A stretch of 64,000 nucleotides of DNA from a phage. The stretch lies in NCBI GenBank assembly GCA_024875585.1, contig GCA_024875585.1_4107.1. One strand, given 5' to 3'. The notes under the pieces were generated by a model. That model searched no databases. It was not told where the DNA came from and saw nothing but the letters and a program-made list of their open reading frames with translations. Both the position numbers and the translations under genes were made by a program. This document shows, piece by piece, positions 14,602 to 64,000 of this stretch (position 1 is the first letter of the stretch; every line of letters starts with the position of its first letter).

Positions 14602-14690
14602 TGGAGGGATGCTGTACTTTATTGGAACTTTTATATATTCATGAACACATAGTTGCCCTCACAAATCTAATAAAGGATAAATGTAAATGA
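14601..14690 (+). pseudogene. internally deleted Family A remnant (29-codon mini-ORF)
   Basis: MEGCCTLLELLYIHEHIVALTNLIKDKCK matches N-terminal bit plus C-terminal helix of the 14163 member; keeps stop/start overlaps on both sides. Confidence 0.5.
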
Positions 14691-16035: not shown

Positions 16036-16039
16036 GCAG

Positions 16040-19327: not shown

Positions 19328-19339
19328 GAGTACTGATAT

Positions 19340-28578: not shown

Positions 28579-28579
28579 A

Positions 28580-29490: not shown

Positions 29491-29978
29491 TGTCGTTACA
29501 AAGTGCATTAAAAGAAGCAAAGAAAATCCATGAGTACATGATTATGGTACAAGAAGGTTCAGTCCCAGGTGTGTATAAAACATCTGATACTGAATTTTTT
29601 GTAAAAGACCGTGACGATTATGATGAGTCAGAGATATGTGCAGAAACGTTAGTACTGCACACTGATACTGGTGATAGTGATAACTGTGAATATCATATGT
29701 ACAATCAGTACATTAGTTATTGCCGTAATGAAGATATTACCATCTACAACACAGATATTGATGCTGATGACACTATCATTCCGTATTCAGTACTGGAAGG
29801 TCCGTGGGATAGTGAAGGGTATTACTTTCAGAATAGTACTATCTACAATGAAGAAGAACTGGATGTTATTGTGATTATGTGGTACTTTAAAAGTATTGAC
29901 TCCAGTAGTTTCTATTTTGATTATGAATATGTAGAGAATACAGTAGGAGAAGGTAATGTCATTACAAAGTGCTCTTGA
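29490..29978 (+). CDS. Family B paralog, subfamily B1
   Basis: GYYFQNSTIYNEE...IMWYFKSI. Confidence 0.65.
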   Translation: MSLQSALKEAKKIHEYMIMVQEGSVPGVYKTSDTEFFVKDRDDYDESEICAETLVLHTDTGDSDNCEYHMYNQYISYCRNEDITIYNTDIDADDTIIPYSVLEGPWDSEGYYFQNSTIYNEEELDVIVIMWYFKSIDSSSFYFDYEYVENTVGEGNVITKCS

Positions 29979-30402
29979 AAAAGCAAAAGAAATACATGGA
30001 TACTTTGAAGATATAAAGGCAGGAAAGTTCAAAGAAGTATACAAAGCCGAGAACGGTAACTACTACAAAGATGAAATATATAATAATTCCGTTGGTGTAA
30101 GGGTTATTCTTGAGTTGAATTCCAATAGTCCTGTGTCGTTTTCTGAATACAATAGAGATGCAGAATTCATTAGTTATGTTGAAAATGGTAGCATTCGTTT
30201 TATTAATAGACAAAAACCATTAATTTTGAATTATGAAGTTCTGGATGGTCAGTGGGATAATGAAGAGTATTACTTCCAAAACAGTACTGTATACGACGAT
30301 GAAGTACTTGAAGCATTAGTTATTATGTGGTACTTCAAGAGTATTAACTGTCCTCGATTTTATTTGGATTTCGAAGAACTTGGTAAAGATCCAGAGGTAT
30401 AG
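29956..30402 (+). CDS. Family B paralog, subfamily B1
   Basis: EYYFQNSTVYDDE...IMWYFKSI. Confidence 0.65.
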   Translation: MSLQSALEKAKEIHGYFEDIKAGKFKEVYKAENGNYYKDEIYNNSVGVRVILELNSNSPVSFSEYNRDAEFISYVENGSIRFINRQKPLILNYEVLDGQWDNEEYYFQNSTVYDDEVLEALVIMWYFKSINCPRFYLDFEELGKDPEV

Positions 30403-35170: not shown

Positions 35171-35647
35171 ATGTCCAACGAACTCACATTCACCAATGCA
35201 CAAAAAATAGCAAAAGACATTATCAGGGTTTATAAATTCCTTGCGAATGTTACTGAAGATTTTTTAATTGATAAAAATAAAGTTATTAAGCGAAATGGAT
35301 ACCTTTCCTTTATGGATGGGTTGCTCTATAGTTCAGATGAGTCAGCTTGTAGTATTAGAGTACTTGATACTGTACCAAGTGGTGATTTTATTTCATACCA
35401 TTTTCCAAGTTCAGATAAGTTCAAATACTACAATAGTATTCTCATAGCAGAAGACTTTGATACGATTGTAATTAACACTGAAGAAGAGTTCTTCCAGTAC
35501 AGTACTGTGTACCCAGAGAGGATTGTTTTCAGTTCAGTGATTTACACTACCCTTAAAAATGAACTAAATTCCGATAGTGATCATTTCTACTTGGACCTGA
35601 ATAATATCGATTGTATTATTGAGTACATGGAGAAAAATGGTTTATGA
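35171..35647 (+). CDS. Family B paralog
   Basis: EEFFQYSTVYP. Confidence 0.6.
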   Translation: MSNELTFTNAQKIAKDIIRVYKFLANVTEDFLIDKNKVIKRNGYLSFMDGLLYSSDESACSIRVLDTVPSGDFISYHFPSSDKFKYYNSILIAEDFDTIVINTEEEFFQYSTVYPERIVFSSVIYTTLKNELNSDSDHFYLDLNNIDCIIEYMEKNGL

Positions 35648-36147
35648 TTACTACAGAATATGATTACAATAGTGTCCTTGAATTTGCAGAAAATATATAT
35701 CGTATTGCAAAGGAGTTCAGAAGTCCTGAGCCGTTTGGTGGTATGTTCGAATACGATGAGTTTAGTTCATCAAAAGGAAGACTTGCATTTACTAATGGTA
35801 GAGGTAATCAAATCTACACAGAGTACTTTGATGACAATGACTTTCATCACAAAGCCGAATACATTTCATATTGCCCTGGGTCTGATTTGAAGATTCATAT
35901 TGAAAGAGATATAGAAAATGTATTTGTTCCATATACTGATTTAGTCTTCATGTCAGAGGAAATGTACTTTCAGGAATCATTGATTCATGATACAAAAGTA
36001 CTTAATACTATATTATTATATGGTACACTACTTAATCATTACAAATACAATCAAAGATTCTTTTTAGATTTAGTAGTATACCATCAATGTGTGGATTATT
36101 TGAATGCAAAATCAGACAACAATTCAGTACATGACCGATGGTTCTGA
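35644..36147 (+). CDS. Family B paralog
   Basis: EEMYFQESLIHD; ATGA overlap. Confidence 0.6.
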   Translation: MITTEYDYNSVLEFAENIYRIAKEFRSPEPFGGMFEYDEFSSSKGRLAFTNGRGNQIYTEYFDDNDFHHKAEYISYCPGSDLKIHIERDIENVFVPYTDLVFMSEEMYFQESLIHDTKVLNTILLYGTLLNHYKYNQRFFLDLVVYHQCVDYLNAKSDNNSVHDRWF

Positions 36148-36466: not shown

Positions 36467-36863
36467 AATTATGCAACGCTGTCTTATTGACAAATACGGG
36501 ATATATGGATATCGTTTAAGTGCTCCTATTGACAAAAATAAAACAACCTATGTAAGCTATAATGCTGTACAAGGGTTTGATATATTCATTAGTACTAATT
36601 ATCAAATCAAACAAGCTAAAGATGTGTCTATAATGACCCCTGATGAGTTATTTCAGTACAGCTTAGTTCTTCCTACATGTATCGATTTACAACGTCTAGG
36701 AGCGATACAGAAGGTTTTACGCGAACATAAAGTACAACCCAATAAAGTCACGCACATTCCAGAAACAATCTTCAAAACTATAGAAGTAGAAACCCCTGAT
36801 TATATGTTAAGTGATGATGAATTCTACGAGAAGCACTTCCCTGGTAAAGTTTGGAGAGACTAA
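36450..36863 (+). CDS. Family B paralog
   Basis: DELFQYSLVLP. Confidence 0.6.
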   Translation: MLEMIKIMQRCLIDKYGIYGYRLSAPIDKNKTTYVSYNAVQGFDIFISTNYQIKQAKDVSIMTPDELFQYSLVLPTCIDLQRLGAIQKVLREHKVQPNKVTHIPETIFKTIEVETPDYMLSDDEFYEKHFPGKVWRD

Positions 36864-37345
36864 TGAACCGAAAGTACAGAGAAACTATGAAGTTCGCTAA
36901 GGAGTGTTTAGAGACATTTGATTTCATTTTCGATAACAAAGACTCACTTGGTCATTACTTCGTAATTACAAAAAAAGAAGATGAGAGATACAAGTGTCAA
37001 AGATTAGGATACAGTATTGAGTTATCCTTAATGAGTGATGGTATGATAAACTCCATATATGAATCTGGTAAGACAGATTACATTTCATTTAGATCATGGA
37101 GTGATAATATAATGTTCTTGAGTCCTAATGGAAGTAAATATCCATTCATTAATGATTTATCAGAAGAAAGTTACTTTCAAAACAGTTTAATTTATACAGA
37201 AAAAGAACTCAAAATGTTATTCATAATGTCGTACTTTAAAAAGTACTGTAAATTTAAATCATTATCTTTTGAGATTTCTGCGATGAAAGTATTCATTAAA
37301 AATGTAAAAGAATTAAAGAGGGCTTTTAATGTACATAGAAAATGA
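36863..37345 (+). CDS. Family B paralog
   Basis: ESYFQNSLIYT; start at TAATG overlap (track 36851 TTG). Confidence 0.55.
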   Translation: MNRKYRETMKFAKECLETFDFIFDNKDSLGHYFVITKKEDERYKCQRLGYSIELSLMSDGMINSIYESGKTDYISFRSWSDNIMFLSPNGSKYPFINDLSEESYFQNSLIYTEKELKMLFIMSYFKKYCKFKSLSFEISAMKVFIKNVKELKRAFNVHRK

Positions 37346-49872: not shown

Positions 49873-49902
49873 GACAAAATAGAAGTTAATGATATAATGT
49901 GA

Positions 49903-49931
49903 GGTGACAGTATATACTGTCACCTTTTTTT
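49903..49931 (+). terminator. rho-independent terminator
   Basis: GGTGACAGTATATACTGTCACC then TTTTTTT; preceded by TGATATAAT box. Confidence 0.7.
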
Positions 49932-50500
49932 AATCCTGAAAGGTTCCTATAAGGAAATGATTAAAAGCCTAATCCACTCGAAAATGTAGAGGGTAGATGA
50001 GTAGTCCTTTCAGTACGAACAGCAGATGAAACCCGTTAGATGATGGCATAGTTTGAACCACTCACGGCAATGCGGCTGTATAAAGAACTCCAATAGGATA
50101 AAGAGAGTTCCTAGATAGACATATAAGGATCGCACCTTACCAATTATCTAAGGGAGATTTCATAAGAAATATGCGGTCGGAATTATACAATATAGTTGCG
50201 TCCAAATTTTGTGAAATCAAATACAAGTACTGGTCATATGGTATTTGTATTATGTGTCGGGATGTTTAAGACCGACGACCGTTGCTACAAGAACCGCGAT
50301 AGAGAGAAACAGAGCAACCCGCTTTCGTCTCGTAAGAGAATTCGTGATATGAACTATGTGAAGGCCACCAGCGTCAAACTTTTTTGTTCTTTCCCCTGCG
50401 GGGGGGGATGAAATATGCTCAAGCAAACCTCGTCAATATTAATTAAAAGACTTTATAATACTTGTAGAATTGTACATGCACCGCATGGAGAATTCTACTG
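49932..50500 (+). ncRNA. candidate structured non-coding RNA / ORF-free GC-richer region
   Basis: ~570 bp with no RBS-preceded ORF, visibly higher GC than flanks, several local hairpins; identity unknown. Confidence 0.3.
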
Positions 50501-51097
50501 ATGTTGATTACATCAACATCACGTATATTCATTGATGTTTCCATAGGAATAATGATGGCATTTATTAAAAAAGAAAAAACTATTACTTATAAAACTTTGA
50601 ATTTTGATGATTGTATTAATCAATCACAGGACGAAAATATTTTTACTGGATATGTGGTTATTAAAGAAAAAGGATGCATTTCTTATATAAAGGAATTGCA
50701 AAATGGCATTGAAGTCACTTCAGTTAAATTACTTCCTACACAAAAACCAACAATATCAAAAGCCCAGTACGGTAATTATTTCGAGGAAAGATACAGTAAT
50801 AATTTAATAAGTGTTAAAGCTCATATTGTAAAAGGAGAACTAGAAGGAGAATATAGAAAATTCAACCCACAAGGAAAATGTGTTTGGGTTAAATACTACA
50901 ATTCAGGTGTTGATATAACATCTGAAATTATAGAGTTCTTAGGGTTGTCATGTACACCTGAAACTCTTCATGACTACAAATTTAATACTGAAGAAGAGTT
51001 TAATCTGATGATGCGTTATGGATCACATTTTAAATTTTTATATGAATATAACGTTGACAGTAGTATTTTTGATAAAATAGTACATAACTGTCTATAA
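50501..51097 (+). CDS. hypothetical protein (198 aa), possible MORN/YwqK-like repeats
   Basis: ORF+SD GGAGAA; GEYRKFNPQGKCVWVKYYNSG repeat-like segment. Confidence 0.55.
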   Translation: MLITSTSRIFIDVSIGIMMAFIKKEKTITYKTLNFDDCINQSQDENIFTGYVVIKEKGCISYIKELQNGIEVTSVKLLPTQKPTISKAQYGNYFEERYSNNLISVKAHIVKGELEGEYRKFNPQGKCVWVKYYNSGVDITSEIIEFLGLSCTPETLHDYKFNTEEEFNLMMRYGSHFKFLYEYNVDSSIFDKIVHNCL

Positions 51098-51113: not shown

Positions 51114-51635
51114 ATGTCGAAGAAGGATACTTCGAATAAGCACTCAGTTCATTTCAGTACTGGAAAAGATAACTGGACAACCCCAAAAGATTTTTTTGAA
51201 GATTTAGATGAGTTATGGGGATTTACACTTGATGCTGCTTGTGTAGATGAGACTGCATTGTGTGATAATTTTTTCACTCCAGAAGATGATTCACTGTCAC
51301 AGGATTGGGGAAATAATATAGTTTGGTTGAATCCACCATATAGTGACTTAAAAACATGGTTATCTAAAGCTGTAGATGCATATAATAACGGAGCAACTGT
51401 AGTTATTCTTGTACCCTCAAGAACCGATACAATTGCTTTTCAGGATTATGCTGCTAAAATATGTGATTGTATTTGTTTTATTAAGGGAAGATTGCGATTT
51501 GGTATACCAGAAGAACCCGATAAGAAAACTGATTCAGCACCATTTCCTTCGTGTCTGATAGTTCTGGATAAGTACTTAACCACTGCTAAAATCAATTGTC
51601 TTAAATCTCTCGGATTGGTGATGAAGAATTTATGA
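51114..51635 (+). CDS. dam: DNA N6-adenine methyltransferase (phage Dam family)
   Basis: WTTPKDFF...FTLDAAC...VWLNPPYS: catalytic NPPY motif and upstream blocks typical of the small phage Dam family. Confidence 0.8.
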   Translation: MSKKDTSNKHSVHFSTGKDNWTTPKDFFEDLDELWGFTLDAACVDETALCDNFFTPEDDSLSQDWGNNIVWLNPPYSDLKTWLSKAVDAYNNGATVVILVPSRTDTIAFQDYAAKICDCICFIKGRLRFGIPEEPDKKTDSAPFPSCLIVLDKYLTTAKINCLKSLGLVMKNL

Positions 51636-52165
51636 AAGAAACATGTATATTATCATTTATGAGATGTAACCCAGTCCACAATGGACATGGTTTAGTTTTT
51701 GAAAAGGCCAAAACATTACAAGAACAGTACAATGCTGATTTAAAAATTTATCTAAGCACTAGTACTGACAATATAAAAAACCCACTACCACCTGAACTAA
51801 AAATGTATTATACAGAGGGATTCTATCCTTCAGTGCAAGAGAACATCTACACAGAGGACAATCTATTTGATATAATGAGAGAACTGGATGGAAAGTACTT
51901 AGATGTTCTCTTCATATGTGGTTCTGACCGTATTGATTCTTTTCAGAAAACCCTTGACACTTACAATGGGAAGTTGTATAATTTTTGTAATATAAAAGTA
52001 ATTCAAGCAGGTATTGACCGCCAATCAAGTCGATATAGCTCAACACAAATGCGTAAGTTTGCCAAAAATGAAGATTTTGATAGTTTTCGTGAGTTTTTGC
52101 CTGGAAATGACGAGAACTTAAAAATTCAATTATTTGAAGATGTTATAAAATACATGAGGAAATAA
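51632..52165 (+). CDS. nucleotidyltransferase, NMN/NaMN adenylyltransferase-like
   Basis: N-terminal HNGH (HxGH) and C-terminal SSTQMR (SxTxxR) motifs of cytidylyltransferase-fold enzymes; ATGA overlap with dam. Confidence 0.55.
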   Translation: MKETCILSFMRCNPVHNGHGLVFEKAKTLQEQYNADLKIYLSTSTDNIKNPLPPELKMYYTEGFYPSVQENIYTEDNLFDIMRELDGKYLDVLFICGSDRIDSFQKTLDTYNGKLYNFCNIKVIQAGIDRQSSRYSSTQMRKFAKNEDFDSFREFLPGNDENLKIQLFEDVIKYMRK

Positions 52166-52167
52166 TT

Positions 52168-52461
52168 ATGTCAGTACTGTTCAAAACTAATCCAGTACTT
52201 TGGGAACAAAATGAACAATCAGGATTTCGTTCCATCCATGTTGAATACAAAGGTAATACAGTAGTTGCAATTATTGCTAACAAAACTCTAGGAAAATGGA
52301 CCGCACAGGTTGTTCCTATGGGCTATTCTTATACATCTGATGAGGTTCAATTTTTAGCTGAACTTTATCGTCAAGTTCCTTTTATTATTAATGTGTTAGA
52401 AGGCAATGATACATTATCACATGAAGATGTGATTGATTTTCTTGGAAACTTACATGTGTGA
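52168..52461 (+). CDS. hypothetical protein (97 aa)
   Basis: ORF 3 nt after previous stop. Confidence 0.6.
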   Translation: MSVLFKTNPVLWEQNEQSGFRSIHVEYKGNTVVAIIANKTLGKWTAQVVPMGYSYTSDEVQFLAELYRQVPFIINVLEGNDTLSHEDVIDFLGNLHV

Positions 52462-52741
52462 TGAAATAAATCTTACAGGATATTTTTTACAAGAATCTAT
52501 GATCAAATTTAGTGAACATTTCCCAGTACTGGATGGTATCGAAATGTGGCATGTCAAACCACTGTTTCACACTTTCAGTAAAGAGCACAAAATGTTATTG
52601 ACTGAAGCGAGTAAATCAAATAACATATGTGAAATCAAAATTGGTGTAAATGTCTATAAAGGGATGGTTATCTTTTTTGACAATAACAGCAACTACTTTT
52701 ATATTGTTAAGGAGCAATACGTTGACAAATACAAATACTAA
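52454..52741 (+). CDS. hypothetical protein (95 aa)
   Basis: first ATG of track ORF 52433. Confidence 0.45.
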   Translation: MCDEINLTGYFLQESMIKFSEHFPVLDGIEMWHVKPLFHTFSKEHKMLLTEASKSNNICEIKIGVNVYKGMVIFFDNNSNYFYIVKEQYVDKYKY

Positions 52742-53330
52742 TACATACTTCCGTTATCTTCGTTTAGGTCTTTCCCTTCGACCAATCCGTGGAAAGTGTG
52801 ATTCACTCGCAGACCTTGACTATGCATATGCATTACATCATGAGGGTGTACAGTATGTATTGGGTGATTATGGTGAATTTGAAGAAACAAATGACAGTAC
52901 TGGAATTAATGCTGGTGTAGAAAATCTCAACAACATTGCAAACAGTTCGCGTCATGATATTGTGTTACAGATTCAAAACTTTATTGAGCAACACACTGGT
53001 AAACGTGTTTGGTGTTATGTCGGAACTGATGCACAAATGTCTATTTCATTCGGTAATGATGACGGATATGTCGCACAGCTAATTATGGATTTTGAATCTG
53101 AAGAGAAGTTTTTAGAATTTAAAGATAAAATCATCAAATCACTCGTTGATATGGGTATCCCAGAAGATAAAATGCCAGAAGTTCAAAACATTGATGAATT
53201 TGTTTTGATTCCATCTGATGAGAAATACGATGCTATGTTTTCTGCTCTTAATATTCCAGGAGTCATTGTGGAGTACTTTGATGATGGTGATGATAGCATC
53301 TATATCGATTTAGATGACGATGATGAATAA
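52722..53330 (+). CDS. acidic protein with poly-Asp C-terminus (~202 aa)
   Basis: candidate TTG start 7 nt after AAGGAG (track 52650); ends DLDDDDE. Confidence 0.45.
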   Translation: MTNTNTNTYFRYLRLGLSLRPIRGKCDSLADLDYAYALHHEGVQYVLGDYGEFEETNDSTGINAGVENLNNIANSSRHDIVLQIQNFIEQHTGKRVWCYVGTDAQMSISFGNDDGYVAQLIMDFESEEKFLEFKDKIIKSLVDMGIPEDKMPEVQNIDEFVLIPSDEKYDAMFSALNIPGVIVEYFDDGDDSIYIDLDDDDE

Positions 53331-53335
53331 TATAT

Positions 53336-53362
53336 AGCCCGACATAAGTTCGGGCTATTTTT
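53336..53362 (+). terminator. rho-independent terminator
   Basis: AGCCCGA-CATAAGT-TCGGGCT then ATTTTTG. Confidence 0.75.
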
Positions 53363-54977: not shown

Positions 54978-55233
54978 AGCTGAACTAATAGTTCATACAT
55001 ATAAAATGATATCAAGTACTGAGTTATCATATAGTGAAGATAATCCGGTACTGGATTATTTTGTGGAATTATTGAAAGACCATTATATTGGTAAATCACT
55101 GAATCTTAATAATATTAATTTCACTGTAAAGGATGTAGCACCAGGTAAAAACGTACTAATAGTATGTGTTACTTCATCTGATAACCCAGTATACCCAATA
55201 TCAATAACTTTTGAGATATTAGGGGATGTATGA
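54970..55233 (+). CDS. Family C-like small protein (87 aa)
   Basis: start moved to ATG 54970 (track 54847); MTKAELIVHTYKMI. Confidence 0.5.
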   Translation: MTKAELIVHTYKMISSTELSYSEDNPVLDYFVELLKDHYIGKSLNLNNINFTVKDVAPGKNVLIVCVTSSDNPVYPISITFEILGDV

Positions 55234-55520
55234 ATATCATTTTAATACAAAAAACATATACTCTACTAATGAAAGAATATGCTAATACTTATGATGAAAG
55301 GTGTAGTGCAATTCATAATATGTATGAATTTATTACTCAAGAGTACAGGGATTATATATATGCTGCGTTAGTGGGTAGATATTTCAGTACTAGAAAATAC
55401 CCAAAACTTCAAATAGTTGATGTTTCTTTTTATTTCAATGGTCATATTACTATTCATAGTTTAGACCAAGATTCAACAACGTACTTAAACTTTTCATTTG
55501 ATGAGGTAACATTTTTATGA
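55230..55520 (+). CDS. Family C small protein
   Basis: LIQKTYTLLMKEY; ATGA overlap. Confidence 0.55.
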   Translation: MNIILIQKTYTLLMKEYANTYDERCSAIHNMYEFITQEYRDYIYAALVGRYFSTRKYPKLQIVDVSFYFNGHITIHSLDQDSTTYLNFSFDEVTFL

Positions 55521-55699
55521 GAACAGTATTTTTTATCTGGAGTCTTTTTTCATTGGCAGTACTGACAGTTTCAGGTGCTTATTCATTTTTAACAATGAAC
55601 ACATGGTATGTTAATTTACTATTCCCAATTGTTGGTGTTGGTTTAGGATTTAGTTTACATAGTGTATGTAAGGATTACAATGACAAATACAACAAATGA
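55517..55699 (+). CDS. small membrane protein (60 aa, two predicted TM helices)
   Basis: FFIWSLFSLAVLTVSG and LLFPIVGVGLGFSL hydrophobic runs. Confidence 0.5.
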   Translation: MRTVFFIWSLFSLAVLTVSGAYSFLTMNTWYVNLLFPIVGVGLGFSLHSVCKDYNDKYNK

Positions 55700-55964
55700 A
55701 GTTCTTATTGCTGAAACAATGAAGATGATTTACTTTATTACTACGGCACAGGATTTGTCTTATCCAGTGAAATCGTTACTTAGGTCAATGTATCTTGATA
55801 TTGTAAAAGAATATTATAAATCTAAACACAGAAGCATTATTAGTGTTTATCGTGATTATGAAAGGATTCGTATTTTATTCTGGAACAAGAATCGAGTACG
55901 TTCTGAATGTGATCTAGTAGATTTTAAATTAGAGAATCTTTATTGCTATAAACAGGAACAATAG
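55680..55964 (+). CDS. hypothetical protein (94 aa)
   Basis: start moved to ATG after SD AAGGA (track 55662). Confidence 0.5.
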   Translation: MTNTTNEVLIAETMKMIYFITTAQDLSYPVKSLLRSMYLDIVKEYYKSKHRSIISVYRDYERIRILFWNKNRVRSECDLVDFKLENLYCYKQEQ

Positions 55965-55973
55965 TTTAATTCA

Positions 55974-55982
55974 TGATATAAT
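55974..55982 (+). promoter_or_regulatory. TGATATAAT extended -10 box
   Basis: same 9-mer as at 35129, 48183, 49892, 63747; no clear -35. Confidence 0.35.
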
Positions 55983-56022
55983 AAAGGGTAAGGAACAATA
56001 ATTAACACAAGGAGTGTGTGAA

Positions 56023-56751
56023 ATGCTTGACCGTATCCGTTTCGCTACAGAGATGGCGAATGAATTAAACATGGCAAATTTCCAAATGTTAACATCAGTA
56101 ATGGCTGAACATGCATGTGCTTATTCTGTAAGTGGTGTGCAGTGTGGTCAGGAGAATATGTTAGCAGATGTTTATAGTGAAGTACAAAGTAAGCAATATA
56201 GTGTAAAGACTTACAAGGACAAGTTTGTAAGTCTTTACATGAATGAAGATATTAAAGAAGATCGTAAATTCACTGATTTTATTATTGAACGTCGAGTATC
56301 GGGTGTATCTAATCCTAATGCATCAAGTGATGAAGTCTTTGCGGAAGTACTTCAAGATATATATGAAAATGAATTGAAAAGTAAGAATCATTACAATGTA
56401 CGTGAAACTAGCACAGTGCTCTTGGGATATGATGAAGACGAACAATATTATTATTTCCGTATGACTGAAGTTCCATTTGAATATAAATCACCAAACACCA
56501 CATCAGTTAAAGAATTTACTGAAAAAAGTAAAAATTACATGAAACATGAAGGTAATCGCTGTAGTGTGAATGGTTATGATGAAAATGGTGTTCATGTTTA
56601 CGAGTGGATTCATCCTAACTGTCAGACATACACCCGTTGCTTGAAAAAACGTTATAATTTAGAAGAGCATGACTCATTCTATTTTAAGGTAAAGAAACAA
56701 GATTACCGTCGCCCTGATGATTCTGAATTAATGGGGATGGTCTATTTCTAA
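56023..56751 (+). CDS. hypothetical protein (242 aa)
   Basis: ATG 8 nt after SD AAGGAG (track GTG 56014). Confidence 0.65.
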   Translation: MLDRIRFATEMANELNMANFQMLTSVMAEHACAYSVSGVQCGQENMLADVYSEVQSKQYSVKTYKDKFVSLYMNEDIKEDRKFTDFIIERRVSGVSNPNASSDEVFAEVLQDIYENELKSKNHYNVRETSTVLLGYDEDEQYYYFRMTEVPFEYKSPNTTSVKEFTEKSKNYMKHEGNRCSVNGYDENGVHVYEWIHPNCQTYTRCLKKRYNLEEHDSFYFKVKKQDYRRPDDSELMGMVYF

Positions 56752-56761
56752 AGGAATCGTC

Positions 56762-57046
56762 ATGGATTTATACTCACATGCTTGGACATTCGAACAGTAT
56801 ATTTCATTATATAATGAAATTTACAATACTGATATGTCATACTGCAATTATTTTCGCAATATGATCGATGAATATTCAAAGGAATTTAATAGTTTATACC
56901 TTTATGTTAATAAAGAAGTTACACATAAGACTATGAATAAAACAGGTACAATTGATGAAATTTCATTTGATTCCTATGGTGTGTATTTCTATATTACATT
57001 TTCTGATGATACTTTAGGTATACACACTTATAGTGAGTTAAAATAA
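56762..57046 (+). CDS. Family C-like small protein
   Basis: C-terminal DSYGVYFYITFSDD. Confidence 0.55.
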   Translation: MDLYSHAWTFEQYISLYNEIYNTDMSYCNYFRNMIDEYSKEFNSLYLYVNKEVTHKTMNKTGTIDEISFDSYGVYFYITFSDDTLGIHTYSELK

Positions 57047-57053
57047 AAATATA

Positions 57054-57077
57054 GGCCAGCGTTTGCTGGTCTTTTTT
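57054..57077 (+). terminator. rho-independent terminator
   Basis: GGCCAGC-GTTT-GCTGGTC then TTTTTT. Confidence 0.7.
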
Positions 57078-57090
57078 CGCAGGTACAAAG

Positions 57091-57393
57091 ATGATCAGTA
57101 TAGATTTAATTGATAGTACTATAAAAATGTTGGCTGATTTAGTGAGACAATCCAATGAAACTTTATACCAATCAATGTATAAAATGTTTGACCGATACAT
57201 CAAGGATTGTAACATATCATTATATGGACTTGCTGTTGATATAGACGATTACTATGGTATTAATACTTCATATGAAACAGGAATTTTAATTGGTATTAAT
57301 ATAAAGATGGGATATTATCCTTATTACTGTATAGGATTACCAGATAATACGTTGGTAGAATATCCAGCCAGTACTATTAAATTAAGAGGATAA
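57091..57393 (+). CDS. hypothetical protein (100 aa)
   Basis: ORF after terminator. Confidence 0.55.
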   Translation: MISIDLIDSTIKMLADLVRQSNETLYQSMYKMFDRYIKDCNISLYGLAVDIDDYYGINTSYETGILIGINIKMGYYPYYCIGLPDNTLVEYPASTIKLRG

Positions 57394-57400
57394 AACTAAA

Positions 57401-57979
57401 ATGAATGTATTAGAATTAAGTACGAAGCTGATTAGTATGCGTAACGAGTGGTACGATTGGTTTTATAATGGTACTGATATGGATTTTTCAAAATATCCAT
57501 TTATGGAATCAGGATGTGATTCAAGATACCGCTGGTTGAGCAAAAGTGGTTCTGGTTTATTCATTCGTGTTGATGATAGTGGTCGAGGAATTATAAAAGA
57601 TTTCATTCAAGTTGAAGAACTCGTCTATGATAATTGGGGTGATAACGATCCATACCTTGGAAATATGATTTATGTAAGTGAAAATGATTGCATATTCGTT
57701 ATCCAGCGTCATGGTGATTCTATGTTTTATGTAGCGGACAACAATACACCTGACGGTGCAGCAGCCGATGGACTTATGCCTAAGATTGATATATTGGAAT
57801 TTGGATTACCTGAGCATTTTCAGATTAGTACTTTATACGATATCCCACCACTTGAGTTCTTTGAAGAATTTAAATTATACTACAATGAACTTCAAAAATT
57901 GAGTTCTGAACATCGAATTGAAATAACAGTCAAGTACATAGATGGGACAAAATTAACCGATACGGGGATAGAATTTTGA
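57401..57979 (+). CDS. Family B paralog (distal copy)
   Basis: PEHFQISTLYDIPP. Confidence 0.55.
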   Translation: MNVLELSTKLISMRNEWYDWFYNGTDMDFSKYPFMESGCDSRYRWLSKSGSGLFIRVDDSGRGIIKDFIQVEELVYDNWGDNDPYLGNMIYVSENDCIFVIQRHGDSMFYVADNNTPDGAAADGLMPKIDILEFGLPEHFQISTLYDIPPLEFFEEFKLYYNELQKLSSEHRIEITVKYIDGTKLTDTGIEF

Positions 57980-58665
57980 TTAAAGATTTAGATAGAATTT
58001 TATATGTACTAAGGGGTGTAATTACATTACATCCACACATCAATCGAATTGAAAGTACATTTCAGTTGGAGTCAAGAGAAACTCAATATTCACATATATC
58101 AAATGTAGTTGGCTCACTTAGTACTGAAGACTCGCCTTACGATATTTGTGTATGTGAAGTACAACCAAGTTCGGATCTTGGATTTGCTATTTTTGATAAA
58201 AATCAAAATCTCATTAGTATGTTTCAGTGCAATAATCCTTTTTGGAAAACATGCCTGTATCCAGAGTGGGCTATGCTTGATCCAACCAAGAGCACCATTA
58301 AAGTTTATGACTCTAAAAATGATGAAGTCGTTATTGATTTGGATGAGTCAATGTCCGAGGAAGAACACTTTCAGCTAATGATGATGCGTGCTATGCCTGA
58401 ATACAATGCAATGATTAACACTGTGCAATACATTAAGGATACCATGCCATCATTGCGTACACATGAGTTTTGTCATCCGGTATTGTATGAACATTTAGAT
58501 TTAGATTTCAGTACTATTAAATTTAAAGATAGTGTCATTGAGTATATCCAAGAGGTTACTAAATTCGATTTCATTAGTACAATGAATAATAACCCTGAAA
58601 CAAATTTCAGACGACAATACAATGAATCTTTGTCTAATGGACGTGATACAAGTTGGTGGAAATAA
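57976..58665 (+). CDS. Family B paralog (distal copy)
   Basis: EEHFQLMMMRA; ATGA overlap. Confidence 0.55.
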   Translation: MIKDLDRILYVLRGVITLHPHINRIESTFQLESRETQYSHISNVVGSLSTEDSPYDICVCEVQPSSDLGFAIFDKNQNLISMFQCNNPFWKTCLYPEWAMLDPTKSTIKVYDSKNDEVVIDLDESMSEEEHFQLMMMRAMPEYNAMINTVQYIKDTMPSLRTHEFCHPVLYEHLDLDFSTIKFKDSVIEYIQEVTKFDFISTMNNNPETNFRRQYNESLSNGRDTSWWK

Positions 58666-58666
58666 T

Positions 58667-58930
58667 ATGAATATTCAAGATAGATTACAATTACTATACA
58701 CTATTGAACAGGCTGCTTTTGAACTTGTTAATAAAATCTCCGAAGAACTTCCCAAAGGAACTATAGTTCGTGTACGTGAGAGGGATTATGAATCTGGAGA
58801 AATTGAAGAACTAGTACTGACCGTGAATAAAGTAACATACTATGAATCTGAGTTGGCTATCCAATGTAGATCGGAAGATGGTAAAATATACTATTATGAC
58901 ACTGGTGTAGATATAGAGGTAATAAAATGA
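58667..58930 (+). CDS. hypothetical small protein (87 aa)
   Basis: start moved to ATG after SD GGTGGA (track 58622). Confidence 0.55.
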   Translation: MNIQDRLQLLYTIEQAAFELVNKISEELPKGTIVRVRERDYESGEIEELVLTVNKVTYYESELAIQCRSEDGKIYYYDTGVDIEVIK

Positions 58931-60069
58931 CCCTTTTGCAAATATATGAAGATTTAATGCACTTGTGCAATACAAACGATGCGTTCTTTTATGTGGATCA
59001 TAAAAGTCCTGCTGGTGGAACGTATCGTGTATTCAGTTATCGTCTAGCATCATATACTGATTTCATGCAACCCAATGCATTAGAAACCCGTGGATCTATG
59101 TGGGAAATTGATGAAGAAGGTAATATGATTCGTTGTGCTGCTCGTACTATGAAAAAGTTCTTTAATGCTTACGAGAATCCTGCTACAATGTTCCCTGCTA
59201 ACACCACATGCGATGACATTGCAGTAGTGATGCCTAAATTGGATGGTTCAGTGATCAGTACTTACCGTGACAATGATGGTGAGATTCGTTGTAAATCACA
59301 TACTGCATTGTATTCTGACCATGCGATTAACAGTACTCGACTTATTAACGAGAACCAGAATCTATATCAGTACATCGATGAAGCTGAACGTTTAGGTTAC
59401 ACAGTTAATATGGAGTATACAAGCCCAGAGTACCGAATTGTATTACCGTATCAGGTAGAACAATTGTTTGTGCTGAACGTTCGTCATCGTGTAAGTGGTG
59501 AGTTGCTATGTGGTAAAGCATTACGTGATAAGTTTCCATGTCTTTCACAGTACAGCACTAATATGACAGGAAAAGATATTCATCACACTTTTCCTGTGCG
59601 AAATTCATTCCGTGAAAGCGTTGATGAAGTTCATAAAATGCTTGACATTGAGGGTTTTGTTTGCATTTTAAAAGATGGGACAATGTGTAAAATAAAGACT
59701 GACTGGTACAGTTCATTACATCTTACAAAAGATAGTATTATTATTGATTCTCATTTATATGAAGCTGTATTAAATGGTTCAAGTGATGATTTAAAACAAT
59801 TGTTCAGTTCTGACGAATATGCTATGCAAAAGATATTAAGAATGGAACAGTTGGTTTTTTCGTGCTATAATGCATTACAAGATGAAGTAGAAAGCTTCGT
59901 CAATGAACACAAGCACTTAGAGCGAAAGGAATTCGCATTGAAGGTTCAGACGTGCTTATCTAGTGAACTGAATCGTCAGGGCTTGGCATTTGCAATGTAT
60001 AATAATAAGAAAGTTGATTACAAAGATACACTTATCAAATACATGAAAATTATACTAAAAGATTTTTAG
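58927..60069 (+). CDS. rnlA: RNA ligase 1 (T4 Rnl1-like, ATP-dependent)
   Basis: FFY.D..S..G.TYR.FSY..ASY N-terminal block, nucleotidyl-lysine motif PKLDGS, and overall colinearity with T4 Rnl1 from memory. Confidence 0.85.
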   Translation: MTLLQIYEDLMHLCNTNDAFFYVDHKSPAGGTYRVFSYRLASYTDFMQPNALETRGSMWEIDEEGNMIRCAARTMKKFFNAYENPATMFPANTTCDDIAVVMPKLDGSVISTYRDNDGEIRCKSHTALYSDHAINSTRLINENQNLYQYIDEAERLGYTVNMEYTSPEYRIVLPYQVEQLFVLNVRHRVSGELLCGKALRDKFPCLSQYSTNMTGKDIHHTFPVRNSFRESVDEVHKMLDIEGFVCILKDGTMCKIKTDWYSSLHLTKDSIIIDSHLYEAVLNGSSDDLKQLFSSDEYAMQKILRMEQLVFSCYNALQDEVESFVNEHKHLERKEFALKVQTCLSSELNRQGLAFAMYNNKKVDYKDTLIKYMKIILKDF

Positions 60070-60099
60070 TACTAACTAGCCTAAGCACAAGGAGAAGTG

Positions 60100-60354
60100 A
60101 TGGCTAAACCTAAGTATAAAAATGACGGTTCCCTTTCTCCAACTGAGTTCAGGAAAATACAACAAGAAATCGATGAATTACAGCACAAACGCTCAATGAA
60201 AGGTGTGAAGATAAGTAAGAAGAGAATCGAGAATACTTTCGGATGTAGTAGTACTGAATATAAGAAGAAAAGGAAACCGAAGGGTGTTAAGCCGAGAATA
60301 CATGATGTAACTCGCTATACATCAAAACGTGAAAATAAATTTGATCCACTATAA
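60100..60354 (+). CDS. small basic protein (84 aa)
   Basis: ATG after SD AAGGAGAAG; Lys/Arg-rich. Confidence 0.55.
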   Translation: MAKPKYKNDGSLSPTEFRKIQQEIDELQHKRSMKGVKISKKRIENTFGCSSTEYKKKRKPKGVKPRIHDVTRYTSKRENKFDPL

Positions 60355-60363
60355 GGAGTTCAT

Positions 60364-60594
60364 ATGAAAGTTGAAGTTCAGCATAGTATTGTTCAAGATA
60401 TGTCTGTAGTTAAATTTCTTTCATTAAAAGATTACTTTAGATGTATCAAGTTCCTAGAAGAATCTCATTTAAAATGGACTCCATTAAAGTACAGTTCATC
60501 CAAAGACACTGCTAGTATTCGTTGTGATGAAGCTGTACTCGTAAAAATCTCTAAAAGATTTGGGATAGGTAAAGTGAATGAGCACAGTAAATGA
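60364..60594 (+). CDS. hypothetical protein (76 aa)
   Basis: ORF+SD AAGGAG. Confidence 0.6.
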   Translation: MKVEVQHSIVQDMSVVKFLSLKDYFRCIKFLEESHLKWTPLKYSSSKDTASIRCDEAVLVKISKRFGIGKVNEHSK

Positions 60595-60832
60595 ACTAAA
60601 ATACTACAACAAAATTGCGGATACGTTTATTACTCATTTATATGAAGAATTCAGTAGTATCCGCAAGGAATATACAGGTAAATGTATTTTATATAGTTCT
60701 TATCTTAGTGGAAGAATTGAACGTGCTTACATTACTAAAGTGAAGTTTTCTGATGATTATCAATTACTATTTGAATTGGATGATTGTTTAGTCATTGAAG
60801 CTGATTTAATAGTAGATGTGCTGAACAATTGA
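60578..60832 (+). CDS. hypothetical protein (84 aa)
   Basis: ORF overlapping upstream gene by 17 nt. Confidence 0.5.
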   Translation: MSTVNELKYYNKIADTFITHLYEEFSSIRKEYTGKCILYSSYLSGRIERAYITKVKFSDDYQLLFELDDCLVIEADLIVDVLNN

Positions 60833-60838
60833 GGACAT

Positions 60839-61153
60839 ATGAATAAAGAACTTGCATATAAGGGTATCGAAAAGCTAAAGTTCGTTGAAAAGGAACTAAT
60901 AGAATCAGTTGAAACAATGGTTGAAGATTACGTTTTTGATTTTAAGAAAACATTAATTGGATGTAAAGTCAAATGCTGGGATCATACCATTAGAGAATGG
61001 TTCAGTGCTATAATTCTTGATGTTAAAGTATCTCGAACTGGTATTGGTAACTTAGTAAATGGTGAATGCTTTGTATACACTGAATACAATAACGGTACAA
61101 GACACCTTTCAAAAGGATGGCACAATCTCGAAGATGTAGAATTCATTGAGTAA
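60839..61153 (+). CDS. hypothetical protein (104 aa)
   Basis: ORF+SD GAGGACAT. Confidence 0.6.
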   Translation: MNKELAYKGIEKLKFVEKELIESVETMVEDYVFDFKKTLIGCKVKCWDHTIREWFSAIILDVKVSRTGIGNLVNGECFVYTEYNNGTRHLSKGWHNLEDVEFIE

Positions 61154-61165
61154 CAAGGAGTAATA

Positions 61166-62098
61166 ATGCCAACTATCACCTTAACAATTGGGTTGCCTGG
61201 GTGTGGTAAAACTACATGGGCAGTGCAAGAGATTAAAAACGCCAAATCTAAGACTATCAACATCAACCGTGATGATATTCGTGAATCTATGGCGGGGTCA
61301 CATGATGCTTACAAATTCAACGATGCTAATGAGCAGTACGTAACTACTTTACAGTTCAGTGCAGCAAATTTAGCAGCAGAGAATGGTTGGAACATCATCA
61401 TATCCGATACGAACCTTAAACAACATTTCCGTGATCTCTGGAAAGTATGGGCTAAAGATAATGATTATGATTACAAAGAAAAGAACTTCTATGATGATTT
61501 TGTACCTAATGAAGACCGTGGTGCAGATGTTCATGAATTCTTTAAGATTAAAGAGTTCGTAAAACTTTGTAAGAAATATAACCGCCAGCGTGAGCGTTCA
61601 GTACAAGATAATATCATTGACACTATGGCAGATACTTACTATTATAGTAAAGCAATGCACATTGGTTACTATGGTAATTCAAGAGAAGCCGCTGTTATCG
61701 TTGATATTGACGGAACTCTTGCTCATAAATGGGGTCGTAATCCTTACGATGAAAGTACTGTACTACAAGATACACCAGATGAAGAAGTTATTTTGTCTAT
61801 TATCGCTGAAGCAGTTTTCCATAAACGTAAGATTATTGTAATGAGTGGGCGTACTGAAGGGTGTCGTGCAGACACAGAACAGTGGCTTAAGAATTGGGGT
61901 GTTCCTTACGATGCATTGTTTATGCGAGGCATCGATGATAAACGACCCGATGATGTGGTAAAATATGAGTTGTATATGAATAACGTCGTGCATCATTACG
62001 ATGTTAAAAAAGTATACGATGACAGATCACAAGTCGTATTCATGTGGCGTAAACTACTTGGATTAAAAGTGATGCAAGTTGCAGAAGGAAATTTCTGA
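61166..62098 (+). CDS. pseT: polynucleotide 5'-kinase / 3'-phosphatase (T4 Pnk-like)
   Basis: P-loop GLPGCGKTT, NINRDD, and HAD-phosphatase motif DIDGTLA; colinear with T4 Pnk from memory. Confidence 0.85.
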   Translation: MPTITLTIGLPGCGKTTWAVQEIKNAKSKTININRDDIRESMAGSHDAYKFNDANEQYVTTLQFSAANLAAENGWNIIISDTNLKQHFRDLWKVWAKDNDYDYKEKNFYDDFVPNEDRGADVHEFFKIKEFVKLCKKYNRQRERSVQDNIIDTMADTYYYSKAMHIGYYGNSREAAVIVDIDGTLAHKWGRNPYDESTVLQDTPDEEVILSIIAEAVFHKRKIIVMSGRTEGCRADTEQWLKNWGVPYDALFMRGIDDKRPDDVVKYELYMNNVVHHYDVKKVYDDRSQVVFMWRKLLGLKVMQVAEGNF

Positions 62099-62105
62099 CA
62101 CAAAA

Positions 62106-62129
62106 GGGATCAATGTATGATCCCTTTTT
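62106..62129 (+). terminator. rho-independent terminator
   Basis: GGGATCA-ATGTA-TGATCCC then TTTTTC. Confidence 0.75.
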
Positions 62130-62147
62130 CTTTTAAGGTATATTATA

Positions 62148-62324
62148 ATGAATGTAAAAACACAGATGTTATTACAAAAAGAATACTTAGAAAATATAGA
62201 AATGTTCTATAGATTGTCTTTATACGAAAATAAACATAAAAAATATAACTTTTCTAAACAACTAACCACAAGTACTAATGATTATCTATTTTCATCAATG
62301 TTTTATGTGAGAGGTTTATTATAA
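62148..62324 (+). CDS. hypothetical small protein (58 aa)
   Basis: ORF below cutoff; TAATG overlap with next gene. Confidence 0.4.
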   Translation: MNVKTQMLLQKEYLENIEMFYRLSLYENKHKKYNFSKQLTTSTNDYLFSSMFYVRGLL

Positions 62325-62581
62325 TGGATAAATTTCACACAGATATAACACAGATAGGTAATCTTATCAATAGTCTAATTACTGATTTAGAAGAAAAGTA
62401 CTTAGGTCGAAATGTATACGTTGAAATGTATGAAACATATGGTGTTATTGATATGATTTATTACAGTGCATTGAAGTGTGAAATACGTTTAACAGTATGT
62501 TTGTTTGAAAAAGATACATTCAACAGAAGTACTGCAATTCGTCAGGTTGGTGTAGATGACATTGAATTATATGAGGAATAA
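62324..62581 (+). CDS. hypothetical small protein (85 aa)
   Basis: ORF; resembles neighbours (KYLGRNVYVEMY). Confidence 0.55.
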   Translation: MDKFHTDITQIGNLINSLITDLEEKYLGRNVYVEMYETYGVIDMIYYSALKCEIRLTVCLFEKDTFNRSTAIRQVGVDDIELYEE

Positions 62582-62835
62582 TGATGTTTGAACAGGACGT
62601 AGAGCTATTCAAAAGACATATTGAATATTTGACTGTTTTAGAGAATGATTTAACCACAAAATACAAAGGAATTAGAGTCCAGTGTTGGTATGATGACTGG
62701 GATTATAAAAGGGAACTTACTATTGACCGAATTTATTTCAGTGATGGTGTACTGAATGTACATGGTGTAAATGATTTTGGTCATTCATATACATATTCTA
62801 ATAATGCTAAATTTAAAAGGATCTGCAATGAATGA
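62581..62835 (+). CDS. hypothetical small protein (84 aa)
   Basis: ORF; KYKGIRVQCWY resembles neighbours. Confidence 0.55.
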   Translation: MMFEQDVELFKRHIEYLTVLENDLTTKYKGIRVQCWYDDWDYKRELTIDRIYFSDGVLNVHGVNDFGHSYTYSNNAKFKRICNE

Positions 62836-63130
62836 ATATTATCATAATTTATTCGATTACATAAAACTAATAGATGATCTTTCTTTTGAATTTCTCAGTA
62901 CTGAAAAAGTTGATGAACCTCTCTATTATGATTGTATTAGTTCACTGTGTTTAGATGAAAAAGAGATATTAGCAAATAACTTACCATCCACGGTCTGTGT
63001 AATCAATGGTTCCAAGGCTGTGGTGTCTGAGGTTAATTTTCATAAATCACTTAATACAATTGTTTACAAGTTCGATAACACTTGGTTTAATCACGTAACT
63101 AGTAATATTAAATCTGTGAGATTTTTATGA
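62828..63130 (+). CDS. hypothetical protein (100 aa)
   Basis: start moved to first ATG (track 62771). Confidence 0.5.
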   Translation: MNEYYHNLFDYIKLIDDLSFEFLSTEKVDEPLYYDCISSLCLDEKEILANNLPSTVCVINGSKAVVSEVNFHKSLNTIVYKFDNTWFNHVTSNIKSVRFL

Positions 63131-63423
63131 ATATAAAAAAATTATTTGAACAAGTAAATTTATTGTACTTGTGTTCAGACGGCTCAGATAAGGAATATAG
63201 TGAAGTTTATTTAGAACTATTTAGAACTGAAATACATCTAATTCGAAGATACCTAATTGATAACAAAACTGAAGTAAAAGTTAGATACCATAATGGTACT
63301 TTAAAGAATGGTATAATTATTGGATTGATAGTTACAAGAATGTCCAGTAATATTAAAGTTGCAGTAAGATTAATGACTGATGATGGTGTCTACACAATAG
63401 AAGCTAATGAGATTATATATTAA
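63127..63423 (+). CDS. hypothetical protein (98 aa)
   Basis: ATGA overlap. Confidence 0.55.
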   Translation: MNIKKLFEQVNLLYLCSDGSDKEYSEVYLELFRTEIHLIRRYLIDNKTEVKVRYHNGTLKNGIIIGLIVTRMSSNIKVAVRLMTDDGVYTIEANEIIY

Positions 63424-63729
63424 ATGGATATACAAACATTCAATAAACTAAAGTACTATGATAATGGTTTTGTATTAATAATTAACGAACTTGATAGTAT
63501 ACCATACGAATATCATAATCAAGTAATGAATATAGTAAAAAATATATGTGAAGAACTAAAAAGTATATTTAAAAATGAATATGTTTATGATTTAGGTAAT
63601 AATAGAACAAAACTATACATAAAGAAATTCTGGGGAACACATTGTGGTTTGATGGTCGATTTGGGTTTAAGTTTAGACAATAATTTCGAATCATGTTCAT
63701 TATATTTGGACGAAATGAGAATCTCATGA
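63424..63729 (+). CDS. hypothetical protein (101 aa)
   Basis: ORF directly after previous stop. Confidence 0.55.
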   Translation: MDIQTFNKLKYYDNGFVLIINELDSIPYEYHNQVMNIVKNICEELKSIFKNEYVYDLGNNRTKLYIKKFWGTHCGLMVDLGLSLDNNFESCSLYLDEMRIS

Positions 63730-63746
63730 GACATAAGGACATTCGG

Positions 63747-63766
63747 TGATATAATTTGATTATATC
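63747..63766 (+). promoter_or_regulatory. TGATATAAT -10 box within palindrome GATATAAT-TTG-ATTATATC
   Basis: extended -10 consensus embedded in perfect 8-bp inverted repeat; SD AAGGAG follows. Confidence 0.4.
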
Positions 63767-63786
63767 ATTAATAAGGAGAGGTTGAA

Positions 63787-64000
63787 GTGAATGGGTCGTT
63801 TTTAGAAATACTAGAAAAGACAACTGGGATGCTTTCAAGTTCACTAATGCACATTTTCAGTACTAGTAATTTTTACGATTCGCGTGTGTTAGATGTAATT
63901 TGTAATAGCTATGTTGAATGTGTGTCTAATACAATATGTCCATTTAACGCTTATTCAAATGATGGTGTTGAAAAGTTTATTATATCCAAGATTCAATGTG
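63787..64000 (+). CDS. hypothetical protein (5' partial, runs off window)
   Basis: GTG 8 nt after SD AAGGAGAG; open frame to window end; adjacent ATG frame stops after 4 codons. Confidence 0.4.
   Translation, partial: MNGSFLEILEKTTGMLSSSLMHIFSTSNFYDSRVLDVICNSYVECVSNTICPFNAYSNDGVEKFIISKIQC

Follow-up and report, generated by a model that had tools for sequence, protein, structure and literature searches.

The two overlapping genes at positions 51,114 to 52,165 of the window (the whole 64,000-nucleotide stretch of phage DNA analysed here) appear to encode two independent enzymes, a Dam-family DNA N6-adenine methyltransferase (ORF1) and a HIGH-motif nucleotidyltransferase (NTase; ORF2), which would be co-transcribed within a terminator-bounded unit of roughly six genes. 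The family to which ORF2 belongs is a distinct one, and ORF2 reaches no curated cut-off for NMN adenylyltransferases (NMNATs), phosphopantetheine adenylyltransferases (PPATs) or other enzymes. Among the explanations weighed below we favour, tentatively and with appreciable doubt, that ORF2 is a stand-alone NMN/NaMN adenylyltransferase-like enzyme working independently of Dam.

Judged by sequence identity, the window is from an Asteriusvirus jumbo phage of E. coli, a myovirus of the 121Q/PBECO4/UE-S1 type, and would represent a stretch of its early/accessory region. Escherichia phage UE-S1 shares 98.3% identity with the segment from 50.5 to 53.4 kb, and PBECO4, 121Q, phAPEC6, Sharanji and about 30 further Asteriusvirus jumbo myoviruses share 92-94%. 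The Dam–NTase pair itself is 92-98% conserved among 33 Asteriusvirus genomes, and this conservation, together with the 3631 homologous clusters of ORF2 described below, argues against either ORF being a reading frame by chance. Both genes had been annotated before, in more than 30 genomes from a known phage genus, and the locus is largely ordinary: in GenBank, ORF1 is labelled 'DNA N-6-adenine-methyltransferase' (UE-S1, phAPEC6, Sharanji) and ORF2 'putative cytitidyltransferase' (UE-S1). For the locus as such little changes, given that both genes are annotated in dozens of Asteriusvirus genomes. Its features are the following.

49901..49926, + strand: terminator-like hairpin and T-run closing the upstream unit (11-bp stem, 5 GC pairs, T tail)
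50430..50459, + strand: promoter-like site TCGTCA-18-TATAAT shortly before block gene 1 (weak evidence; consensus scan only, 10/12 match)
50501..51097, + strand: block gene 1, uncharacterised 198-aa protein, phrog_16210 (9.6e-92)
51114..51635, + strand: ORF1, Dam-family (PF05869) DNA N6-adenine methyltransferase, 173 aa (Pfam, PHROG, NPPY)
51632..51635, + strand: ATGA start/stop overlap of the Dam and nucleotidyltransferase genes (ORF2 ATG 51632-51634, ORF1 TGA 51633-51635)
51632..52165, + strand: ORF2, stand-alone HIGH-motif nucleotidyltransferase, PHROG 3041/395, 177 aa (motifs, PHROG)
52168..52461, + strand: block gene 4, uncharacterised 97-aa protein, phrog_14956 (1.4e-46)
52433..53330, + strand: two small uncharacterised genes of the same unit, phrog_38105 (52433-52741) and phrog_15575 (52650-53330) (PHROG)
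53334..53358, no strand assigned: bidirectional terminator-like hairpin closing the unit (9-bp stem, 5 GC pairs, T-runs on both strands)

The upstream hairpin is followed by a non-coding gap of ~570 nt, in which no ORF with homology was found (49930-50500), and an Rfam scan gave no match there or anywhere else in the window. About six genes on the same strand are bracketed by the hairpins at 49901-49926 and 53334-53358; the phrog_15575 gene among them probably has its real start at an internal position. Four of these genes (phrog_16210, Dam, NTase and phrog_14956) recur in the same order, at 32-65% protein identity, in three further phages, namely Klebsiella phage K64-1 (Alcyoneusvirus), Xanthomonas phage XbC2 (Mimasvirus) and Erwinia phage pEa_SNUABM_44 (Eneladusvirus). 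In each of them the phrog_16210 orthologue lies immediately 5' of Dam and the phrog_14956 orthologue directly 3' of the NTase gene, and the metagenomic Rak2-like contig L015 shares the gene order.

An earlier note on this DNA had described an ATGA overlap of the two ORFs, which is indeed present at 51632-51635, and had seen in the pairing a compact counter-defence module. Dam and an NMNAT would then form a dedicated, translationally coupled unit that completes a phage NAD+ pathway together with a Nampt/NadV- or Prs-type enzyme from another place in the genome. Such a unit would fit the conservation of the ATGA overlap in Alcyoneusvirus and an adjacency of Dam and NTase that holds down to 33-44% identity in four genera and one metagenomic relative. 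The flanking uncharacterised genes are, however, as syntenic as the pair itself, and the overlap, although kept in PBECO4 and K64-1, is lost in the other relatives, where it gives way to a 1-nt gap in L015 and to gaps of 18-24 nt in XbC2 and pEa_SNUABM_44. Overlaps of 4 nt are also common, occurring at 6 of the 56 gene junctions (~11%) in the homologous 27-kb stretch of PBECO4, and with so many junctions alike and the overlap lost in relatives, we regard it as ordinary genome compaction and not as the signature of a special pair. Beyond the Rak2-like clade the NTase gene occurs without Dam, in Pseudomonas phage 30-2 (Wroclawvirus), in cyanophage S-SCSM1 and in a 232-kb T4-like metagenomic contig, which argues that ORF2 works independently of Dam. 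The four-gene synteny, the commonness of the overlap and the occurrence of the NTase without Dam thus leave the proposed module unsupported, and the adjacency seems best explained as inherited, clade-wide synteny in a compact accessory operon. A joint role of the two enzymes in DNA hypermodification was also considered and set aside, as the block holds no other modification genes and the NTase is found elsewhere without Dam.

With respect to ORF1, its description as a small phage-type Dam enzyme with an NPPY motif stands. It scores 110.9 bits against Pfam PF05869 'Dam' (cut-off 28.1, E 7e-32), with residues 16-156 (141 of 173) aligned to profile positions 7-149 of 169, and it matches phrog_111 'DNA methyltransferase' at 3.4e-57; the catalytic NPPY (motif IV, (D/N)PPY) is located at aa 73-76, nt 51330-51341. 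ORF1 therefore resembles the PF05869 phage Dam methyltransferases both in its profile match and in its NPPY motif, but with 91.6 bits it falls below the equivalog cut-off of TIGR01712 (phage_N6A_met, 97.05 bits, NCBIfam), and because of this near miss we assign it at family level only. As an orphan Dam-type methyltransferase it would methylate the phage DNA and so blunt restriction, an anti-restriction role that we infer from the family. GATC occurs at half its expected frequency in the genome, that is, it is twofold under-represented.

ORF2 carries the two motifs that had been read from it, HxGH and SxTxxR, in the form of HNGH (aa 16-19, nt 51677-51688, within GR..P.HNGH) and SSTQMR (aa 136-141, nt 52037-52054), and further motifs are KNPL (51776-51787), GSDR (51920-51931) and YNG (51962-51970). 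It thus has the characters of the HIGH-motif nucleotidyltransferase superfamily, namely (T/H)xGH after strand 1, SxTxxR near the C-terminus and a Rossmann-like fold. The match to phrog_3041 'cytidyltransferase' extends over the full length (5.2e-56, aa 2-176) and phrog_395 is matched at 3.9e-24, while the gathering threshold of Pfam CTP_transf_like (PF01467) is missed by ORF2 with 15.6 vs 21 bits; of 39 ORF2-family members, 29 do reach PF01467 at E<=0.01, the best of them with 4e-9. Word-indexed homologue searches gave only close Rak2-like relatives, and the family came to light only when 1.84 billion representatives were searched exhaustively with HMMER, which gave 3631 clusters (50% identity) homologous to ORF2 at E<=1e-3. 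By tblastn, the gene is present in 559 phage records, 456 of which are cyanophages, and ORF2 is 30-37% identical to the cyanophage genes over nearly the full length. The cyanophage 'cytitidyltransferase' (PHROG 3041/395; S-SZBM1_140, S-SCSM1 ORF91) is accordingly a direct homologue with the same motif set. The family consensus reads FGRxNPx(T/H)xGH ... KNPL ... GSDR ... YNG ... SxTxxR, where the first position of (T/H)xGH is Thr in 116 of 170 family sequences and His in 32, including ORF2.

Comparison with curated enzyme families places ORF2 outside all of them. TIGR00482 (NadD, NCBIfam) gives 17.4 bits against a cut-off of 112.45, the NadM (TIGR01527/PRK01153) and NadR (TIGR01526) models give zero matches, and the CoaD model (TIGR01510) gives nothing at E<=1. 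Sub-threshold NCBIfam votes among the 39 members went to NadD (27), PRK01153 NMNAT (16), NadR-NMNAT (15), CoaD (10) and FAD synthetase (9), and this lead of the NadD and NMNAT models over CoaD speaks, together with the NadM-type motif alignment, for an NMNAT-like enzyme. When PDB sequences were searched, single-sequence phmmer of ORF2 found no match and an 11-sequence profile returned noise only. The family profile matched H. pylori PPAT best (1.5e-5, positions 2-149), followed by MJ0951 (1.6e-5), NadM-type NMNATs (3e-3 to 1e-2, N-terminal third only) and one NadD over its full length (1e-2). In the PPAT alignment the family KNPL falls on PPAT KNPM, and GSDR on GLR. As to the closest known family, the evidence is thus divided.

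That the best full-length match of the profile in the PDB is a PPAT suggests an alternative, in which ORF2 would be a CoaD-like phosphopantetheine adenylyltransferase that speeds up CoA synthesis during infection at its rate-limiting step. It agrees with a first structure model of ORF2, for which the top 6 Foldseek matches were PPATs, with TxGH as the commonest family variant, with the name PPAT given to an orthologue in one GenBank record (phage Turkey5) and with the acyl carrier protein encoded by related Mimasvirus phages. We nevertheless judge it quite improbable. The CoaD model is matched by only 10 of the 39 members, all far below its cut-off, and PPATs are outranked by NadM-type NMNATs with a better, second structure model, obtained from a more diverse 18-sequence alignment (pLDDT 94.5, pTM 0.88); the folds closest to it are all small-molecule adenylyltransferases, with NMNATs first. 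In PPATs the N-terminal motif is G(S/T)FDP, whereas the ORF2 family has the NadM-like GR.NP (GR..P). Nor does the genome offer a CoA context, the PBECO4 annotation containing neither an acyl carrier protein nor another CoA gene.

The likeness to NMNATs has its own limits. NadM-type NMNATs (MJ0541/1f9a; NadM-Nudix 2qjt; phage NatV/NARP2) are only 14-16% identical to ORF2, and hhalign against phage NadM-Nudix aligns the N-terminal 54 columns only (GR..GH, KNP(F/L); 62% probability). NadM-Nudix is a bifunctional protein, whereas ORF2 has no Nudix domain, and a true NadM-Nudix coexists with an ORF2 homologue in sister phages. Against an NMNAT also speaks the Thr that, as in PPAT, replaces the first His of HxGH in those 116 of 170 sequences. 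The term 'NMNAT-like' in the earlier note is supported as a resemblance only, and no NMNAT model cut-off is reached. Taking profiles, votes and structure models together, we read ORF2 as a probable adenylyltransferase-type HIGH enzyme of a distinct family, whose fold and N-terminal motifs bring it nearest to NadM-type NMNATs, with PPATs a close second.

Pathways by which phages reconstitute NAD+ are established (bioRxiv 10.1101/2024.02.11.579819; PMC13464706). If ORF2, with a fold that resembles NMNATs in the second model, is an NMNAT, its reaction would be the one that ends NARP2 and NARP3. NARP1, NARP2 and NARP3 are, however, two-gene systems whose partner was found here neither by tblastn with Nampt and NadM-Nudix nor in the PBECO4 annotation, and they use different proteins, their NMNAT components not being family-level homologues of ORF2. 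It had been noted before that no Nampt/Prs-type partner lies in the window, and tblastn with phage Nampt and NadM-Nudix indeed finds nothing there; that a salvage partner would be found elsewhere in the genome was not borne out. The searches used the Nampt, NadM-Nudix and Sir2 cluster proteins of Mimasvirus phage CBB as queries and covered, besides the window, the complete 348,113-bp genome of the relative PBECO4, which is ~94% identical to the window across the Dam–NTase block. In PBECO4 and the window, neither Nampt nor NadM-Nudix had a match better than E=5 (Nampt none better than E=8), while Sir2, the positive control, was found in PBECO4 at 2e-64, and Nampt, Prs, PnuC and NMNAT are all missing from the PBECO4 RefSeq annotation. 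The lack of an NAD salvage partner, one of the outcomes that the note had named as counting against its proposal, is hence what both tblastn and annotation of PBECO4 show.

The distribution of the pathway among relatives points the same way. Phage CBB has a cluster of NadM-Nudix NMNAT (CBB_113), Nampt (CBB_115) and Sir2 (PMC5259590), and Nampt and NadM-Nudix were also found in XbC2, pEa_SNUABM_44, K64-1/RaK2, GAP32 and others; in phages keeping both (XbC2, pEa_SNUABM_44, K64-1) this pair is located ~22-25 kb from the Dam–NTase block. Asteriusvirus is absent among the top Nampt and NadM-Nudix matches in phages, a list reaching 38-39% identity. Since sister genera carry a separate and complete Nampt and NadM-Nudix cluster beside the same block, the small NTase is not the NMNAT of a NARP2-type pathway. 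The idea of a partner elsewhere is thereby largely refuted, and to the dedicated Dam–NMNAT module as a whole we give very little credence. The known pathways were each considered as a home for ORF2 and rejected, NARP1 with less certainty: for NARP2 (Nampt + NMNAT/Nudix) the partner has no tblastn match and ORF2 has no Nudix domain; for NARP1 (Adps + Namat) neither component is annotated in PBECO4 and there is no Nampt-like tblastn match; and NARP3 is a bifunctional kinase + NMNAT (NadR-like) next to a PnuC transporter (PMC13464706), whereas the 177 aa of ORF2 form one domain with no kinase part, the genes beside it are Dam and those of small uncharacterised proteins, and no PnuC is annotated in PBECO4.

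What we propose instead is that ORF2 would be a catalytic core standing on its own, from a large phage-specific family of nucleotidyltransferases with the HIGH motif and a class-I-synthetase-like Rossmann fold. From the chemistry expected of the fold, pyrophosphate would be released as the phosphate of an acceptor attacks an NTP, most likely ATP, at its alpha-phosphate. The likeliest acceptor would be NMN or NaMN, and the enzyme may act as a lone NAD(+)-pathway booster on host-made mononucleotides and not as one member of a salvage pair encoded by the phage; a role in evading defence is to be taken in the same conditional sense. In the host, NaMN is provided by PncA/PncB and NMN by the turnover of NAD-dependent ligase. 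In favour of an NAD-related function, the phage carries genes for NAD consumption or ADP-ribose handling, the PBECO4 RefSeq annotation listing Sir2, three Nudix hydrolases, a macro-domain protein and a WGR protein. More speculatively, PHROG 3041/395 enzymes could constitute a fourth, single-gene phage NAD+ route that speeds host Preiss-Handler or NMN-recycling flux without a phage partner, which we think unlikely. If true, Rak2-like jumbo phages would have the enzyme in free form, T4-like cyanophages and pelagiphages would inject it with the virion, and Asteriusvirus, which lacks the Nampt/NadM-Nudix pair seen in sister genera, would depend on the ORF2 enzyme alone.

Two observations sit uneasily with NMN or NaMN as the acceptor. 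An NMNAT role would be redundant in sister phages, because a bona fide NadM-Nudix NMNAT is already there, and the packaging of cyanophage homologues into virions would be odd for a housekeeping NAD enzyme (PMC9146016, PMC9602691). Homologues of ORF2 were detected in the purified-virion proteomes of cyanophages S-SZBM1 (PMC9146016) and S-SCSM1 (PMC9602691), and two further cyanophages with a virion-detected homologue are cited in the latter paper; the names 'cytidylyltransferase' or 'NMNAT' used for the protein in these studies are by annotation only (PMC9146016; PMC9602691). While the Rak2-like ORF2 consists of nothing but the catalytic core (177 aa) and is encoded among accessory genes, beside Dam, the cyanophage and pelagiphage versions have C-terminal extensions of 200-1000 aa, have structural genes as their surroundings and occur in virions. 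In T4-like marine phages the same core forms the N-terminus of longer virion-associated proteins. Long forms account for 91 of the best 150 of the 3631 representatives, being multidomain proteins of 400-1224 aa, and are present in Pelagibacter phage HTVC008M, Sinorhizobium phiM12-like and Methylophilales phages. In the 67 long representatives that were scanned, the nucleotidyltransferase domain is usually N-terminal, and the fusion partners include DUF5824 (15/67) and a Zeta_toxin/AAA_33 P-loop kinase (6/67); as these partners are a minority and uncharacterised, the fusions do not settle the function of ORF2.

Such features could indicate that the acceptor is neither NMN/NaMN nor phosphopantetheine and that PHROG 3041/395 represents a functionally new branch of HIGH nucleotidyltransferases. 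The enzyme would then nucleotidylate another phosphorylated metabolite or a macromolecular end in early infection, being delivered with the virion in T4-like marine phages and sometimes fused to a kinase or DUF5824. We regard this as a genuine possibility, if a doubtful one. It would account for a family distinct from every curated one, for the prevalence of multidomain forms among the best representatives, with their DUF5824 and kinase fusions, and for the presence of homologues in cyanophage virions. It also fits the family-specific invariant residues N50, R100, N112 and Y111, which differ from the textbook NMNAT set. The conserved Y111-N112-G113 and F104 are no more than candidates for contacts with a pyridine ring. 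On the other hand, the nearest folds in the second model all belong to small-molecule adenylyltransferases, headed by NMNATs, the kinase fusions are a minority that would equally fit a NadR-like logic, and there is no positive pointer to any specific alternative acceptor. An NMN/NaMN adenylyltransferase-like enzyme keeps our tentative preference.

Apart from the locus, it is the family that may be of wider interest, as ORF2 proves to be a member of a very large group of phage nucleotidyltransferases (>3600 clusters at 50% identity, 456 cyanophage records) that is repeatedly found in virions. We found no published functional data on the ORF2 gene or its family, including in the papers on UE-S1, Sharanji, phAPEC6 and PA5oct. 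The substrate of the family, once fixed, would correct inconsistent annotations across hundreds of phage genomes, and the name 'cytidyltransferase' is probably a misnomer for ORF2. Across the family, the labels in use range over 'cytitidyltransferase', 'NMNAT', 'PPAT', 'glycerol-3-phosphate cytidylyltransferase' and 'ribonucleotide reductase A'.

The GCGC tetranucleotide does not occur once in the 64-kb window (1-64000), as against 28 +/- 6 copies in shuffled sequences and about 30 under an order-2 Markov model. It is likewise missing from the complete 348-kb genome of the Asteriusvirus relative PBECO4 (loci L001, L002 and L009-L014), where about 154 copies are expected, and from 40 kb of the Mimasvirus phage CBB (L008; about 20 expected). 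These zero counts suggest extreme clade-wide selection against an HhaI/HinP1I-type site in Rak2-like phages. At the Wroclawvirus locus (L006) the site is not avoided, with 12 copies observed vs 6 expected. No description of this avoidance turned up in a search of the literature. Further biases are shared by the whole window and the PBECO4 genome: CCGG is depleted too (observed/expected ratio 0.56-0.59), GTAC is over-represented (1.4-1.6), and GATC stands at half of expectation (0.50-0.52). The GATC depletion stands despite the Dam-family methylase that the same phage encodes.

With respect to NAD+ metabolism, the PhoH ... Nudix-Sir2 neighbourhood is kept in Asteriusvirus (PBECO4 63711-67140; L009 13711-17140). 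In the compared Mimasvirus region (CBB 54982-63846; L008 1-8847) genes for Nampt and NadM-Nudix lie next to Sir2, whereas Asteriusvirus has neither. The NARP2-type NAD+ salvage pair looks to be missing in a lineage-specific way, having been either lost in Asteriusvirus or gained in the sister genera.

Homologues of ORF2, the small HIGH-motif nucleotidyltransferase next to the methylase, form the N-terminal domain of 400-1200-aa proteins in T4-like marine phages (L007 2689-3918 in Synechococcus phage S-SCSM1; proteins P0030-P0137). The genes for these long homologues sit amid structural genes, and the proteins have been detected in virions (PMC9602691); some also carry DUF5824 and Zeta-toxin/AAA_33 kinase domains together with long Arg/Lys-rich helical regions. 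In the original GenBank record of phage 121Q the orthologue (KM507819.1 194503-195033) bears the label 'ribonucleotide reductase A'. The RefSeq version of the gene reads cytidyltransferase, so the older label is evidently wrong.

Two promoter-like sites lie in and after ORF2:

51954-51982, + strand, perfect sigma-70 consensus (TTGACA-17 nt-TATAAT, 12/12), within the ORF2 coding sequence and pointing downstream
52677-52705, further sigma-70-like site (11/12 match)

The ORF2-internal site could be a promoter for the small genes downstream, or a chance occurrence in AT-rich DNA. Upstream, about 570 nt (49930-50500) separate a terminator from the first gene of the conserved block to which ORF2 belongs. 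This gap contains no homology-supported ORF and gave no Rfam match, and it is conserved in PBECO4 at about 600 nt (L001 11379-11986).

About 7-10 kb downstream of ORF2 lies a putative anticodon-nuclease repair pair, its names transferred from the annotation of the homologous PBECO4 genes:

58927-60069, same strand as the block, putative T4 Rnl1-type RNA ligase
61166-62098, same strand as the block, putative polynucleotide kinase

Pfam RNA_lig_T4_1 was found at the equivalent position of a metagenomic Rak2-like contig (L015).

The window also holds two families of paralogous small ORFs:

13121-19555, + strand, tandem array of 23 paralogous ORFs of ~70-95 aa each
28096-30402, 35644-36147 and 36851-37345, second family, 7 members of ~150-165 aa
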